Below are positions 38,810 to 53,011 of a stretch of 64,000 nt of DNA, one piece after another (position 1 is the stretch's first letter; each line of letters starts with the position of its first letter). Made by a program: the position numbers and the translations under genes. This stretch comes from a virus: positions 44,403 through 108,402 of the IMG/VR virus record IMGVR_UViG_3300011116_000834. One strand, written 5' to 3'. Under the pieces are notes generated by a model, which was not told the origin of the DNA, searched no databases, and saw only the letters and a list, made by a program, of their open reading frames with translations.

Positions 38810-39652
38810 ATGAAGCAAATGCAACTCATTGGCGGTGGTTTTGTTCCTCAATATTCATCATGTTCCGATCTCAAACCAAAGCAATTTGAATGGACATCTG
38901 AAGATCATCCTGTAAAGGTATTTGTCGATTCTGCAATAGTCCCAGGTATGGGATATCAGAAGAAACCAGGAGAGCGTAAAATAGCATGGGTATGCGAATC
39001 CCGTGCTATTTTTCATTCATGGTGCATTCCTCCTGATGTTTGGGAGGCAAATATTATAAAAATTGCAGAAGCATATGACTTATTATTTGTATCAGATAAA
39101 ATATGGGTCGGTAAAGCACCAAATATTCGATATTGTCCAGCAGGAAGCAATCTTCCTTGGATAAAGAATCAACAGGTTCATTCCAAGACCAAACTTGTAT
39201 CGATGGTTGCTTCTGGAAAGAAGATAACATTTGGTCATCATATTCGTCATGAAATTGCAGAAAAATTCAAAGATAAGGTTGATATCTTTGGCGGTGCTGC
39301 CAACTCAAATAGAATTGGCGGAAATTCAGCACCATGGACAGATAAAGAAGATCTAATACTTCCATATATGTTCTCAATCGTCATTGAGAATGACAAATAT
39401 AACACATACTATACAGAGAAGGTAACCGATTGCTTTGCAACGGGAACTATACCGATCTATTGGGGAACATCTGAGATTAATGAAATCTTCAATTCTGATG
39501 GAATAATACAATTAACTCCAGATTTTGATCCAAGTCTCTTGACAAAAGAACTTTATGAAAGTAAATTGAATGCAGTAAATGATAACTTTACTAGGGTAAA
39601 GAATCTTGTATCTGCTGATGATCAATTATATACCTTAATCCATGAAAACTGA
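38810..39652 (+). CDS. GT10-family (alpha-1,3/4-fucosyltransferase-like) glycosyltransferase
   Basis: YMFSIVIEND...YYTEKVTDCFATGTIPIYWG, the GT10 fucosyl motif. Confidence 0.85.
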   Translation: MKQMQLIGGGFVPQYSSCSDLKPKQFEWTSEDHPVKVFVDSAIVPGMGYQKKPGERKIAWVCESRAIFHSWCIPPDVWEANIIKIAEAYDLLFVSDKIWVGKAPNIRYCPAGSNLPWIKNQQVHSKTKLVSMVASGKKITFGHHIRHEIAEKFKDKVDIFGGAANSNRIGGNSAPWTDKEDLILPYMFSIVIENDKYNTYYTEKVTDCFATGTIPIYWGTSEINEIFNSDGIIQLTPDFDPSLLTKELYESKLNAVNDNFTRVKNLVSADDQLYTLIHEN

Positions 39653-40304
39653 AATTGTATCATTCTATTGCGATATCGATAATCGCACATATTATAGCGA
39701 TCACGCAAGAAGATTGCGTATTAATTGCAATGAAAATAATATTCCACACGATATTCGCGAATTATCATCCCGTGGAGAATATCGTTTGAATTGCCTAGCG
39801 AAACCAAATTTTATTCTTTCTATTTTGGAAGAAAAGAAGAAACCATTTGTATGGTTGGATGTCGATTCCATCATTCATAATGAACTTTCCATTTTTGATG
39901 ATCTAGATGAAAAATGTGATATAGCATTTGCATATCAAGGATTTCCTCCAAACACAAATGTAAATTTGCCAAAGGCATCTCCGATATATTTGTCATACAA
40001 ACCAATAGTATTGGAATTTATAAAATACTGGGTTGAAAGGTGCAAGGCAAATGAAAGCAATCCATCAGTAAAAGTATTTGATCATGAAATTCTACTTGGT
40101 GAAGTTTTTCCAACTTTCCTTCCAAAAATGAAAGTAGGTATGCTAGGAATGCCATATGCAATATGGCCTGGCACGCAAATACCAGAAAATTGCAGACCAA
40201 TGATCACCATGGGAATTGCAGATGGGGTTTCTAAAGAAAAATCCTTAAAGGAAATGGGAATGAATGATGATATGATTCGTTTTAACTTGGTGGGAAATCA
40301 ATGA
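39642..40304 (+). CDS. GT-A nucleotide-diphospho-sugar transferase-like protein
   Basis: KP.FIL..L....P.VWLDVD (DxD), later W...C...DH. Confidence 0.65.
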   Translation: MKTEIVSFYCDIDNRTYYSDHARRLRINCNENNIPHDIRELSSRGEYRLNCLAKPNFILSILEEKKKPFVWLDVDSIIHNELSIFDDLDEKCDIAFAYQGFPPNTNVNLPKASPIYLSYKPIVLEFIKYWVERCKANESNPSVKVFDHEILLGEVFPTFLPKMKVGMLGMPYAIWPGTQIPENCRPMITMGIADGVSKEKSLKEMGMNDDMIRFNLVGNQ

Positions 40305-40894
40305 AATTCATTAATTATTATTATGATAAGGATCCAAGCAAATCCTCATTTTATGAGGATTGTTATTTGAATCTAAAAAAGCAATTGAATTCATTCGGAC
40401 ACGAACTAATTGCAGATAACATTGACTTTGAAAGAATGGGATTGTCCGCTTATGATAAATTGAATTTATATAAACCAACATTTATATTGGAAAAACTTGA
40501 TCAATTGCAAGAATCTGTTGCATGGATAGATGCAGATACAAATGTATATGGTGCTATAACAGAATTTCAAAATCTTGATTGTGATATTGCCTTTGCAACA
40601 CGCGAACATGATGGAAAAACACCACATGCTGCATTGATCTATTTTGGAAATACCAAAAAATCAAGAGAATTTTTAACGAGATGGAAAGAATTATGCGATG
40701 ACAAGAGATTGGATCTTGACTGGAAATGTACAGAACATTGTATTCTTGTCGATCTATTCAATGAATTAACCGATTCATTTAAAATTATAAATTTTTATAA
40801 TCTTGCAAGTATATCAAGAAATACCAAAGTAAAAATAGGTATCAGTCCTGCTGGATGGGAGTACGAAAGAAATAAAAATGCTACTAGAAGTTAA
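40301..40894 (+). CDS. GT-A nucleotide-diphospho-sugar transferase-like protein (paralog)
   Basis: KPTFILEKL...AWIDAD, CDIAFA, FL..W...C; similar to the upstream ORF. Confidence 0.65.
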   Translation: MKFINYYYDKDPSKSSFYEDCYLNLKKQLNSFGHELIADNIDFERMGLSAYDKLNLYKPTFILEKLDQLQESVAWIDADTNVYGAITEFQNLDCDIAFATREHDGKTPHAALIYFGNTKKSREFLTRWKELCDDKRLDLDWKCTEHCILVDLFNELTDSFKIINFYNLASISRNTKVKIGISPAGWEYERNKNATRS

Positions 40895-50186: not shown

Positions 50187-50188
50187 TA

Positions 50189-53011
50189 ATGTCAAATTCG
50201 AATGATCAGGTAATACTTGTTGTTACCACATTCAAAGAGACCAATACTGTAGATACAAATAATAATGTATCCAATATCGTCGTTTCAAAAAATCAACCCG
50301 AAACAACTCTGGTTGTAACTAATAATCCTCCTACAGTAAATAATATAACAGTTAGCAATATCAATGCTTCTGAGTTGATAATTCAACCCCCAACAAGCAT
50401 AAATGTAATTGCTTCTACGATAACATCCAGCACAATACTTACTGCAACTCCATTAGGTGTTGCTTCTTCTGGTCCACAAGGTATTCAAGGAGTTACAGGA
50501 CCCACTGGTGGCACTGGATCTACTGGACCTACTGGTGGCACTGGTGCTACAGGATCTGGTTATACTGGAATTAATATTTCTAATGGATATCTTTGGATAT
50601 CGCCAGTAGATAATACTGGTATTAAAGGTGCATCATTCTCTCTTGGTTATGTGATTGGATCTACTGGTTCTACTGGACCTACTGGTGGTACTGGTTCTAC
50701 TGGACCTACTGGTGGCACGGGTTCTACAGGATCTGGTTATACTGGAATTAATATTTCTAATGGATATCTTTGGATATCGCCAGTTGGAAATGATGGAATT
50801 AAAGGTACATCATTTTCTTTGGGTTATGTGATTGGATCTACTGGATCTACTGGACCTACTGGTGGTACTGGTTCTACTGGACCTACTGGTGCTACGGGAT
50901 CTGGATATACTGGAATTAATATTTCTAATGGATATCTTTGGATATCTCCAGTTGGAAATGATGGAATTAAAGGTGCATCATTTTCTATTGGTTATGTGAT
51001 TGGTTCAACTGGTGCTACTGGACCTACTGGTGGCACTGGTGGCACTGGTGCCACTGGACCTACTGGTGGCACTGGTGCAACTGGATCTGGTTATACTGGA
51101 ATTAATATTTCTAATGGATATCTTTGGATATCTCCAGTTGGAAATGATGGAATTAAAGGTACATCATTTTCTTTGGGTTATATCATTGGATCTACTGGAA
51201 ATACTGGAAATACAGGTAATACAGGAAACACAGGCAATACAGGAAATACTGGATCTGGTTATACTGGAATTAATATTTCTAATGGATATCTTTGGATATC
51301 TCCAGTTGGAAATGATGGAATTAAAGGTGCATCATTTTCTATTGGTTATGTGATTGGTTCAACTGGCAATACTGGTAATACTGGCAATACTGGTAATACA
51401 GGTAATACTGGAAACATAGGAAATACTGGTGCTACGGGATCTGGATATACTGGAATTAATATTTCTAATGGATATCTTTGGATATCGCCAGTAGATAATA
51501 CTGGTATTAAAGGTGCATCATTTTCTATTGGTTATGTGATTGGATCTACTGGTTCTACAGGCAACACTGGTAATACGGGCAATACTGGAAATACTGGAAA
51601 CACAGGCAATACTGGAAATACTGGAAATACTGGAAACACAGGCAATACTGGAAATACTGGTAACACAGGAAATACAGGTTCTACGGGATCTGGGTATACT
51701 GGAATTAATATTCTAAATGGATATCTTTGGATTTCACCAGTTGGCAATGATGGAATTCGTGGTGCATCATTCTCCCTTGGTTATATAATTGGATCTACTG
51801 GTTCCACGGGAAATACAGGTAACACGGGTAATACAGGAAACACTGGAAATACTGGAAACACGGGTAATACAGGTAATACGGGCAATACAGGTAACACTGG
51901 TTATGGTTATACTGCCATCAATATTTCAAATGGTTCTCTCTGGATATCACCAATTGATGGATATGGAGTTCGTGGTGCATCATTCTCTCTTGGTTATGTA
52001 ATTGGTTCGACAGGAAATACTGGACCAACTGGAAATGATGGAGTTACTGCTGCTGGATCAAATTATTATGTTCAGTACAAGTATAACACTGGATTATCAG
52101 CAAATTCTGAATTTCGGTATAATGTTCCAACTTCAACTTTATATGCTGGTAAAGCATTATTCGTAACAAATGCTACATCATATGTCCAATTAGATGGATC
52201 TGCATCCACTATATCATCTACAGATGGAACAGATTCTTACAGTCTAACACCATATGGCATTTATCATAATAGCGGATCGCTTGCACCATTTACAATTTCT
52301 TCTGATTATGAAGTAAATATATTTGGAGTATTCAGTGTAACTGATACAACTTCGAGTTACACTTATAAATTCCCACAGAACAATGGAAGCAATGGTCAGG
52401 TATTGACCACTGATGGTGCAAATCCAGCGACATTGACATGGTCAACTGTTTCTTCTACCAATGTAGTAACCTCATTCAATGGTAGAACTGGTGCAGTCCA
52501 AGGAGTATCTGCTGCTGTTGCTGGAACTGGTATTTCAGTTTCTGGTGCAACTGGATCTGTGACTATAACCAATACTGGTGTTCAGTCATTCAATGGCAGA
52601 ACAGGTGCAATACAAGGTGTTTCTGGGATTAATGGATCTACTGGATCTATAAATCTTTTTGGTGGAAGGGGTATATCTTATGGAATTCAAGGGTCTACAT
52701 TCTATTTTGACATGCGTTATGATGCTCCAGGAATAACAGGAGTCACATTTCCAACAACAGGAACTGCTTCGGCAAGCGATAAGGTTTTATTGCAAAGAAA
52801 ACCAAGCGATAGAATGGAATTGATTGCTATTAGCAATCTTTTGACCACACCAATTGCAGTTCTTCCAACTCAAATTCCTGGTGGAATTGGAAGTACACCA
52901 GGATCATATGTATTTTCATTCTACGATACATCTCTTGCAGCACCGTATACTGATACATTCGATAGCGTCAAGGATGCATTAATATATACAATAGATGGCG
53001 GAACCTACTGA
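50189..53011 (+). CDS. collagen-like (Gly-X-Thr) fibre protein with eight internal repeats
   Basis: 940 aa. (GxT)n runs alternate with a ~36-aa repeat; VxSFNGRTG modules; ends in IDGGTY. Confidence 0.8.
50552..52006 (+). repeat. eight near-identical ~108-bp coding repeats separated by 9-bp-period (GxT) microrepeats
   Basis: GGATCTGGTTATACTGGAATTAATATTTCTAATGGATATCTTTGGATATC... recurs eight times with small variations; the last copy is the most diverged. Confidence 0.9.

Follow-up and report, generated by a model that had tools for sequence, protein, structure and literature searches.

The 64-kb window analysed here is the final part of a 108-kb virus record in IMG/VR (IMGVR_UViG_3300011116_000834) that is approximately 60% complete, and it contains a run of glycan genes that ends in a glycosyltransferase with a GT2 (GT-A) domain followed by a tetratricopeptide repeat (TPR) domain. 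This enzyme, hereafter GT2-TPR, is very probably, to judge from its sequence relationships and gene context, a protein O-glycosyltransferase that is expressed together with fibre genes. The complete explanation offered for the locus is O-glycosylation of virion fibres, in which GT2-TPR would glycosylate the phage's own fibres and the enzymes of the preceding island would extend the glycan; the chances for and against it appear evenly balanced. Glycosylation of virions by enzymes of mycobacteriophages (in work cited in PMC12619734) and O-glycosylation of collagen by a GT-A/TPR enzyme of Clostridioides difficile are already known, and the joining of these two in an abundant, uncultured phage group is new. 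The enzyme and the genes that follow it are:

48285-48292, + strand: T4-type late promoter box TATAAATA, adjoining the gmd stop codon and ending 19 nucleotides before the GT2-TPR start codon (ATG)
48311-49528, + strand: GT2-TPR, a protein-type glycosyltransferase (GT-A, then TPR) with a basic C-terminal tail; Pfam PF00535 (GT2), 1.9e-12, over cut-off
49529-49746, + strand: second late box (49529-49536) and a 64-residue mini-fibre open reading frame (ORF; 49552-49746), recognised from the sequence
49719-50186, + strand: third late box (49719-49726) and a 143-residue immunoglobulin (Ig)-like virion protein (49755-50186, phrog_1084), by AF2 model and fold match
50189-53011, + strand: beads-on-a-string Gly-x-Thr collagen-like fibre (940 residues); Pfam Collagen, 6.9e-16, and PHROG tail-fibre families
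53011-56469, + strand: second fibre (1152 residues), rich in FNGxTGxV, with no collagen run; phrog_16641 (tail fibre), 9e-19
56943-57785, + strand: tail-collar-like protein with GATAAATA upstream (56929-56936); phrog_3449, 4e-6

Family membership and predicted late promoter of GT2-TPR

The initial annotation regarded GT2-TPR as a protein glycosyltransferase, and database searches agree with this assignment. GmaR, SunS and 7msk are its top matches in a phmmer search of PDB sequences, and with a profile of 23 homologues the same three lead (3.6e-16, 2.9e-15 and 1.5e-12, respectively), followed at 6e-5 by the next GT2 enzyme, 5tze, which is presumably TarS. By these comparisons, the solved structures nearest to GT2-TPR are those of enzymes that glycosylate proteins or peptides: GmaR is the O-linked N-acetylglucosamine (O-GlcNAc) transferase of Listeria flagellin, and SunS and ThuS are glycocin S-/O-glycosyltransferases (SPbeta prophage). 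The alignment with SunS (query residues 3-223) spans the GT-A domain and extends into the first TPR helices, and within the GT-A part identity to enzymes of the GmaR/SunS/ThuS type reaches only some 27-31%. The DxD motif (D90-A91-D92) is invariant across the 23 homologues. Several Pfam TPR models match residues 180-225, all of them under their cut-offs, and among the matches of the family profile are designed TPR proteins (1e-6 to 1e-4). The top NCBIfam match is the SunS family (TIGR04195), at 48.9 bits against an equivalog cut-off of 350; this threshold is missed by far, so that GT2-TPR is to be considered a relative of SunS and not an orthologue. Homologues in environmental sequences number more than 5900, and none was found in cultured cyanophages at E below 1e-5.

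All copies of GT2-TPR in T4-like phages (L002-L029; approximately residues 385-405 in the window) have at their C-terminus a conserved basic tail of the KFKERKK or FKKRRK type, preceded by a Gln-rich linker; L033 and L035, which are more distant, lack this tail. Targeting to the membrane, to nucleic acid or to the capsid are possible roles for this tail.

The source phage is, by its gene content, a T4-like myovirus. PHROG matches in the window include terminase, sheath, portal, major head protein, tube and neck adaptor, as well as gp46/gp47, gp45, gp44, gp62, regA and the late sigma factor gp55. In its capsid protein the phage shares approximately 55% identity with Synechococcus myophages and with Pelagibacter phage Mosig, which places it in an uncultured aquatic lineage. 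No match was found for the region at the DNA level, nor, among cultured phages, by tblastn for the collagen fibre and the Ig-like protein; the low-complexity filter and the exclusion of records may contribute to these results.

A T4 late promoter belonging to GT2-TPR itself, proposed at 48285 in the initial annotation, is borne out by the distribution of such boxes. Exact copies of TATAAATA occur eight times in the window, every one on the + strand. ATAAATA is under-represented overall (19 observed versus 28 expected), and 11 of its 16 occurrences on the + strand end 6-29 nucleotides ahead of a start codon. The genes behind such boxes encode the sheath, the tube, a tube paralogue, the neck adaptor, GT2-TPR (box at 48285), the 64-residue ORF (49529), the Ig-like protein (49719) and the collar-like protein (56943), and gp55 is encoded at 32470 (phrog_234, 1.2e-55). 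In 26 of 34 related phage loci, NATAAATA starts 23-31 nucleotides ahead of the GT2-TPR start codon. The gene on the 5' side of the box differs among the 34 loci, being gmd in some, another short-chain dehydrogenase/reductase (SDR) in others and an unrelated gene in a few, and because NATAAATA is kept despite these differing neighbours, the box appears to be conserved for its own sake. GT2-TPR is thus predicted to have a conserved late-type promoter. Another late-type box, CATAAATA, is located at 38351-38358, at the end of gp62 and 14 nucleotides before regA, and read-through from it could transcribe the whole glycan island late in infection.

The position of GT2-TPR is constant in 36 viral contigs, in which regA, a variable glycan island, GT2-TPR and a gene of 140-150 residues succeed one another. 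The Ig-like protein is the constant neighbour of GT2-TPR, following it in almost all related loci. In the window, the inserted block is located between regA (38372-38782) and a dUTPase-like gene (59591), which is followed by the DNA polymerase (61783). The polymerase ORF (61783-63270) matches only the N-terminal half of gp43-type profiles (positions 7-496 of 856 in phrog_262), as do its homologues in relatives, and the polymerase is split or bipartite.

Gly-x-Thr collagens beside the enzyme in phages and bacteria

The Thr-rich collagen-like fibre genes reported downstream of GT2-TPR in the initial annotation proved to be one such gene, 50189-53011, since the fibre encoded next (53011-56469) has no collagen run; no other Gly-x-Thr collagen gene is present in the window. 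The collagen fibre gene starts 660 bp downstream of GT2-TPR and encodes 90 triplets, 78 of which have Thr at the Y position. These are arranged in nine runs of 5-17 triplets with a repeated module of approximately 33 residues between runs, and there is no single long uninterrupted triple-helical region. Along the fibre, the composition of the runs is mixed in the first four and then becomes almost exclusively (GNT)n, with up to 13 triplets in a run. Between the runs, the modules are near-identical in DNA (periods of 168-354 bp, 80-84% matches), which indicates recent unequal recombination. The C-terminal 300 residues have no match in Pfam.

Two small genes lie between GT2-TPR and the collagen fibre gene. 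The second of these encodes the Ig-like protein (49755), for which an AF2 model (pLDDT 87) shows an Ig-like sandwich. Its best VIA matches (Z 10.5-10.8) are a 139-residue chain of the T5 tail tip (7qg9_R), which is presumably the T5 collar protein p132 that anchors the side fibres, and a baseplate protein of mycobacteriophage Douge (8zdo_a); baseplate or neck proteins of other phages are also among the best matches. An invariant G63-x-T65 is found in an exposed, Gly/Thr-rich loop of the Ig-like protein. Prediction of a complex between this protein and GT2-TPR returned a score of 0.01, which is evidence neither for nor against binding.

The first of the two small genes is the 64-residue ORF, which resembles a minimal fibre: an N-terminal fibre-anchor segment is followed by one FNGxTGxV repeat and by the C-terminus IDGGTY, which is the same as that of the 940-residue collagen fibre. 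In two related loci (L004 and L030), the long fibre begins with an N-terminus homologous to the 64-residue ORF, which may be a recombination remnant, a short fibre or an adaptor. The late box of the Ig-like gene sits within the last codons of this ORF. A small ORF directly after GT2-TPR, together with GmaR and SunS being the closest solved relatives and with the ABC exporter genes that adjoin the homologues of Thiothrix, could suggest that the substrate of GT2-TPR, late in infection, is a host protein (pilin, flagellin, S-layer or receptor, in the manner of GmaR and flagellin) or a small secreted peptide (in the manner of SunS and sublancin). This is considered highly improbable. The ORF has no Cys, consists of a fibre N-terminus and C-terminus and heads the long fibre in relatives, and its interpretation as a glycocin was rejected for these reasons; the SunS equivalog cut-off is far off (49 versus 350 bits); and, unlike the SunS/ThuS systems, the phage has no glycocin precursor, exporter or thiol-disulfide genes. 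MogR-type regulation, which accompanies GmaR, is likewise missing from the phage.

Compared with expectation from shuffles within each protein, G-x-T-[GA] is found 91 times in the collagen fibre (7.5 expected), 20 times in the second fibre (4.1 expected) and six times in the collar-like protein (0.9 expected), and altogether it is 4-12 times over expectation in these three, in the Ig-like protein and in three large fibre/baseplate proteins (4886-14360). It is absent from the capsid protein, and the tube, portal, replication and island proteins have none or one each, with no enrichment. The excess is compatible with a glycosylation sequon, and the structure of fibre repeats could account for it just as well. 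In mycobacteriophages, Freeman et al. in 2023 reportedly found glycans on the C-termini of capsid and tail-tube subunits, placed there by enzymes of other families. Such decoration of phage structural proteins by phage-encoded glycosyltransferases is described in work cited in PMC12619734 and PMC12801897. Unlike in those phages, the capsid and tube of the present phage lack G-x-T-[GA] enrichment and its fibres are the likely target; that the Gly-x-Thr fibre proteins are the foremost substrates of GT2-TPR is given roughly even odds.

Close relatives of the phage enzyme (more than 60% identity, approximately ten loci) have a Gly-x-Thr collagen 0-8 kb downstream in six to eight cases, clearly so in L003, L004, L009, L030 and L031 and partially in L006 and L027. 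In L026 and L028, a GxQ/R/K collagen is found directly downstream of GT2-TPR. The collagens of L026 (11862-13025), L028 (11810-12982) and L038-L042 consist of charged GER, GEK, GDK and GEQ triplets with almost no Thr, between conserved flanking domains, and the type of collagen therefore varies within one phage lineage while GT2-TPR stays.

To find bacterial homologues, the family alignment was used to scan prokaryotic genomes, one for each species, and the best 80 of 255 bacterial relatives were kept. These are full-length homologues, with 37-45% identity over approximately 360 residues, from Actinomycetota, Pseudomonadota, Myxococcota, Acidobacteriota, Verrucomicrobiota and other phyla. When all neighbouring ORFs at these loci were clustered, the single recurrent neighbour family was collagen-like proteins. 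A collagen-like ORF (at least 12 Gly-x-y triplets) is within 6 kb of the homologue at 42 of the 80 loci, and at 32 it is of the Gly-x-Thr type (GAT/GPT; Thr at 40% or more of y positions). Twenty-four of these Gly-x-Thr neighbours are no more than 400 bp from the glycosyltransferase gene, often in two to five tandem copies; in Acidovorax facilis, an alphaproteobacterial metagenome-assembled genome (MAG) and a betaproteobacterial MAG, four or five paralogous Gly-x-Thr collagen genes are directly upstream (L111:1234-5782, L095:1-5628 and L119:1021-5837). Two of five genomes checked, those of Diaphorobacter aerolatus (4.9 Mb) and Variovorax sp. 770b2 (7.5 Mb), have no collagen gene other than this neighbour, and in the other three, two to four of the four to eight collagen ORFs are at the GT2-TPR locus; these whole-genome counts make adjacency by chance unlikely. 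The bacterial homologues mostly have the collagen gene alone, with no further glycan genes. The cultured jumbo phage Tunturi_5 of Tunturiibacter psychrotolerans also possesses a homologue (gp35; 35% identity, E 2e-55), 3.7 kb from gp29, an annotated tail fibre with approximately 110 triplets, 60% of them GxT (GAT/GPT); its 309-kb genome encodes no other collagen protein.

The initial annotation had drawn an analogy to SgtA of C. difficile, a GT-A and TPR enzyme whose gene is directly upstream of bclA3 and which, in vitro, transfers beta-O-GlcNAc onto Thr of the GPT collagen repeats, the glycan being extended further in vivo (PMC7157674). Because collagen adjacency extends across bacteria and to Tunturi_5, this analogy holds for the enzyme family, and pairing of the SgtA-BclA3 type is, on genomic evidence, a general property of GT2-TPR enzymes. 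The phage enzyme resembles SgtA in architecture: GT-A precedes TPR, the protein is soluble and the size is similar (405 residues versus 358 in SgtA). Its gene, like that of SgtA, is just upstream of a Gly-x-Thr collagen-like gene. Unlike the C. difficile pair, it is carried by a lytic T4-like phage and its presumed substrate is a virion fibre, the two small genes intervene before the collagen gene, and a 10-kb glycan island precedes the enzyme. The collagen runs of the phage, unlike those of BclA3, are short, are not plain GPT and are broken up by globular modules.

According to a quick FastTree phylogeny with SH-like support only, the 21 enzymes of T4-like phages form one clade, and genes associated with Gly-x-Thr collagens are placed both deeper in the tree and in the next clade. 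The mycobacterial homologues in L074 (5929-8382), L075 and L059 (Mycobacterium gastri, M. attenuatum and Mycolicibacterium sp.) are fused to a C-terminal S-adenosylmethionine (SAM) methyltransferase domain, and mycobacterial homologues adjoin PGRS-repeat or pentapeptide (MPTR-type) proteins, which are repetitive Gly-rich surface proteins; this context may point to PE/PPE-type surface proteins being glycosylated and methylated.

The glycan island and competing explanations

The glycan island comprises 13 closely packed ORFs (38810-49528), all on the + strand, of which GT2-TPR is the last. The other 12 are:

38810-39652, + strand: GT10-family (fucosyltransferase-like) glycosyltransferase, the first island gene after regA; Pfam PF00852, 3.2e-9, 37 bits, over cut-off
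39642-40304 and 40301-40894, + strand: two paralogous small GT-A glycosyltransferases; no Pfam match, fold match
40995-41660, + strand: FkbM-type methyltransferase; Pfam PF05050, 1.2e-20
41657-42454, + strand: GT11-family (alpha-1,2-fucosyltransferase-like) glycosyltransferase; Pfam PF01531, 2.6e-22, 80 bits
42430-43194 and 43194-43961, + strand: two probable GT-A enzymes; ESM Atlas leads only, with a DxD-like motif in the sequence
43924-44670, + strand: RXYLT1/exostosin-like (GT47-like) glycosyltransferase; Pfam PF24785 (RXYLT1_C), 1.3e-6, 28.4 bits against a cut-off of 27
44680-45270, + strand: second FkbM-type methyltransferase; Pfam PF05050, 4.4e-13
45267-45953, + strand: gene called GT31-like in the initial annotation; no family match
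45953-47230, + strand: nucleoside diphosphate (NDP)-sugar C-methyltransferase with zinc-finger, SAM and C-terminal domains; Pfam Methyltransf_14, 4.6e-24, and Methyltransf_13, 3.3e-17
47244-48284, + strand: GDP-mannose 4,6-dehydratase (gmd); Pfam PF16363, 8.6e-146, 486 bits

All 13 had been annotated as consecutive glycan genes. Their common orientation stands; eight are assigned by Pfam matches over cut-off (GT10, GT11, the two FkbM enzymes, the RXYLT1-like enzyme, the C-methyltransferase, gmd and GT2-TPR) and two as GT-A enzymes by fold, two have weaker leads, and 45267 is without assignment. The G+C content of the island (27-33%) is lower than that of its flanks (35-42%). Homologues of the GT10 gene (38810) are found in several related loci, and gmd of close relatives is 78-86% identical and each time immediately ahead of GT2-TPR.

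No usable sequence match to 39642, 42430, 43194 or 45267 was obtained from PDB, NCBIfam, PHROGs and Pfam at thresholds up to E = 10, and when 5.8 billion proteins were searched by words, 45267 retrieved only itself and one fragmentary homologue. The AF2 model of 39642/40301 (pLDDT 86) has a GT-A fold, and the DxD motif (W71-D73-x-D75) is invariant in this family. Its top Foldseek match in PDB is the capsid-glycosylating glycosyltransferase A64R of PBCV-1 (2p72 and 2p6w; E 3e-8, TM approximately 0.6), a shared fold that alone is no proof of function, with GT6 and GT8 enzymes ranking next. In giant viruses (PBCV-1 with A64R and Vp54, Mimivirus with its fibrils), soluble cytoplasmic viral glycosyltransferases build virion glycans that are methylated and contain deoxyhexoses; unlike the present phage, these are eukaryotic viruses, and the atypical glycans of PBCV-1 are N-linked. 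The ESM Atlas structure of 42430 has a TM of 0.86 to a cluster of GT34-type nucleotide-diphospho-sugar transferases (a GT34/TOD1 lead), and its structural neighbours there include glycosyltransferase domains of multidomain enzymes of giant viruses. ESM Atlas feature matches of 43194 (0.93-0.94) are to GT8, Nucleotid_trans and GT6 clusters.

The sugar-nucleotide gene gmd together with the C-methyltransferase, GT10, GT11 and two FkbM genes is a trait of O-antigen or lipopolysaccharide (LPS) gene clusters. Membrane anchors, which the initial annotation had named as evidence against virion glycosylation, are absent, there being no membrane-spanning segment in any of the 13 proteins (the maximum Kyte-Doolittle value of any 19-residue window is 1.26). 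Nor did Pfam match an undecaprenyl-phosphate (Und-P) priming transferase, Wzx/Wzy or ABC transporter, or ligase in the island, functions that the host could supply. With gmd paired with a C-methyltransferase and GT10 and GT11 present, the product may depend on host-supplied Fcl or may be a C-methylated 6-deoxyhexose; a 4-ketoreductase is absent in either case from the record (approximately 60% complete).

Several observations weigh against O-glycosylation of virion fibres by the whole locus. In phage relatives at 53-60% identity, GT2-TPR is retained at the same position together with its late box and no Gly-x-Thr collagen is present, their collagens being only of the charged type (GER/GEK/GDK) and 12-15 kb distant; the strict co-occurrence of GT2-TPR and Gly-x-Thr fibres that the initial annotation looked for across related phages thus does not hold, and the collagen fibre cannot be the sole or ancestral phage substrate. 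In the quick tree, the nearest bacterial relatives of the phage clade are mostly mycobacterial and Thiothrix genes, of which 2 of 24 have an adjacent Gly-x-Thr collagen, the neighbours being PGRS or pentapeptide-repeat proteins or, in Thiothrix, an ABC exporter. The G-x-T-G excess could reflect the structure of fibre repeats (FNGxTGxV and short triplet runs) and not a sequon, and the conserved basic tail could mean association of GT2-TPR with membrane or nucleic acid. Nothing ties the other 12 island enzymes to the virion beyond adjacency and the lack of membrane proteins, and neither GDP-fucose synthase nor any other SDR was found in the 108-kb record (approximately 60% complete), so that fucosylation would need a host enzyme or a different sugar would be used. 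The fucosylated, methylated virion coat that had been ascribed to these 12 enzymes is therefore not upheld, and extension of the same glycan on the virion by the island is plausible but unsupported. GT10, GT11, gmd and FkbM genes are typical of O-antigen clusters, and the published interpretation of such islands is modification of the host surface (PMC7029224, PMC12801897).

The islands so interpreted, in pelagimyophages and cyanomyophages, mix glycosyltransferases, sugar-nucleotide enzymes and tail fibres and are thought to modify host O-chains, and GT10 and GT11 genes are known in cyanophage S-SCSM2R (PMC7029224, PMC12801897). The present island resembles them in belonging to an aquatic T4-like phage and in its many glycosyltransferases, sugar-nucleotide enzymes and tail fibres. 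Unlike those islands, which are in the structural region, it is located between regA and polymerase and ends in a conserved, late, protein-type GT2-TPR.

Functions may be divided between the two parts of the locus, GT2-TPR glycosylating a virion protein (maybe with one sugar, as SgtA does) and the island being an independent cassette that remodels host surface glycans (O-antigen, capsule or S-layer glycan) against superinfection or the sticking of progeny to debris. This division of labour is considered unlikely. Hypervariable island content beside a conserved GT2-TPR would fit it, as would the O-antigen character of the genes and the published readings just cited, the failure to identify an extending enzyme for SgtA in vitro (PMC7157674), and the bacterial homologues that adjoin a collagen gene without other glycan genes. 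Against it, a glycan island always adjoins GT2-TPR across the lineage, and in a complete 147-kb relative (G002) the island likewise contains GT10, a C-methyltransferase, three SDRs and a GT2, although the genes are not the same ones; no flippase, polymerase, ligase, Und-P priming enzyme or membrane segment is found in the island; and CATAAATA before regA (38351) could make the island late too.

Rather unlikely is the further alternative that the whole block, including GT2-TPR, modifies envelope polysaccharide or lipid-linked glycans of the host, the fibres being merely co-located in a hypervariable host-recognition region. Islands that mix tail fibres with LPS-type genes (PMC7029224) speak for this, as do the basic tail, which could bind membrane, and the PHROG and record annotations, which call the family 'beta-1,4-glycosyltransferase' or 'LPS biosynthesis'. 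However, the solved relatives of GT2-TPR act on proteins or peptides and outscore the next polysaccharide GT2 by nine orders of magnitude, LPS synthesis cannot explain the family-wide adjacency to Gly-x-Thr collagens, the late promoter is common to GT2-TPR and structural genes, and the island has no membrane proteins.

Hypermodification of the phage DNA with glycans against restriction, as in T-even phages, has very little probability. The glycosyltransferase families present here, GT10, GT11 and GT2-TPR, are not known to act on DNA. A DNA substrate is also at odds with the late promoter and the fibre context, and the thymidylate-synthase/dCMP-hydroxymethylase family (PF00303) was found neither in the 108-kb record (60% complete) nor in the complete G002, for which reason DNA glycosylation was set aside, in agreement with the initial annotation. 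Phage glycosyltransferases are nevertheless classically DNA-modifying, and diverse DNA glycans are known from work cited in PMC12619734.

Proposed mechanism and its meaning for phage and bacterial surfaces

Under the explanation by virion-fibre glycosylation, the product of 48311-49528 would be a soluble cytoplasmic protein O-glycosyltransferase with GT-A and TPR domains like SgtA, GmaR and SunS, transcribed late from its own gp55-type promoter jointly with the downstream fibre genes. It would move the first sugar to Thr (or Ser) of Gly-x-Thr motifs in outer virion proteins of the phage, in the cytoplasm during their synthesis. The main target would be the 940-residue collagen-like fibre, with the Ig-like anchor protein (49755) and other fibres as possible further targets. 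The exchangeable, AT-rich island (gmd, the C-methyltransferase, GT10, GT11, the GT-A enzymes and two FkbM enzymes) would provide unusual sugars, extend the glycan and methylate it, the outcome being a strain-specific sugar coat built on a conserved priming step.

A broader and more tentative proposal, on balance doubtful, is that the hypervariable islands of 'LPS genes' in aquatic T4-like phages are cassettes for the diversification of virion glycans and not auxiliary genes that manipulate the host: an SgtA-like enzyme would prime Gly-x-Thr motifs of fibres and of the Ig-like anchor, and exchanged enzymes would build strain-specific methylated deoxyhexose glycans. If so, phage particles would have 'serotypes' analogous to bacterial O-antigens, the virion glycans would affect host recognition, protection from proteases and grazers, or stickiness, and the same enzyme family would glycosylate Gly-x-Thr collagens in many bacterial phyla.

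Glycosyltransferase islands are among the commonest 'auxiliary' gene sets of marine and freshwater T4-like phages and are routinely interpreted as modifying host LPS. If they decorate the virion instead, their counting as metabolic genes would change, as would the understanding of host range and of particle surface chemistry, and phage-encoded virion glycosylation, so far shown only in mycobacteriophages, would also be known from a very abundant group of phages. The same pairing in the cultured phage Tunturi_5 makes the idea directly testable. The pairing of GT2-TPR with Gly-x-Thr collagens in many bacterial phyla generalises the single studied case of SgtA and BclA3, and from it a widespread class of collagen-like surface proteins with O-glycans is predicted.

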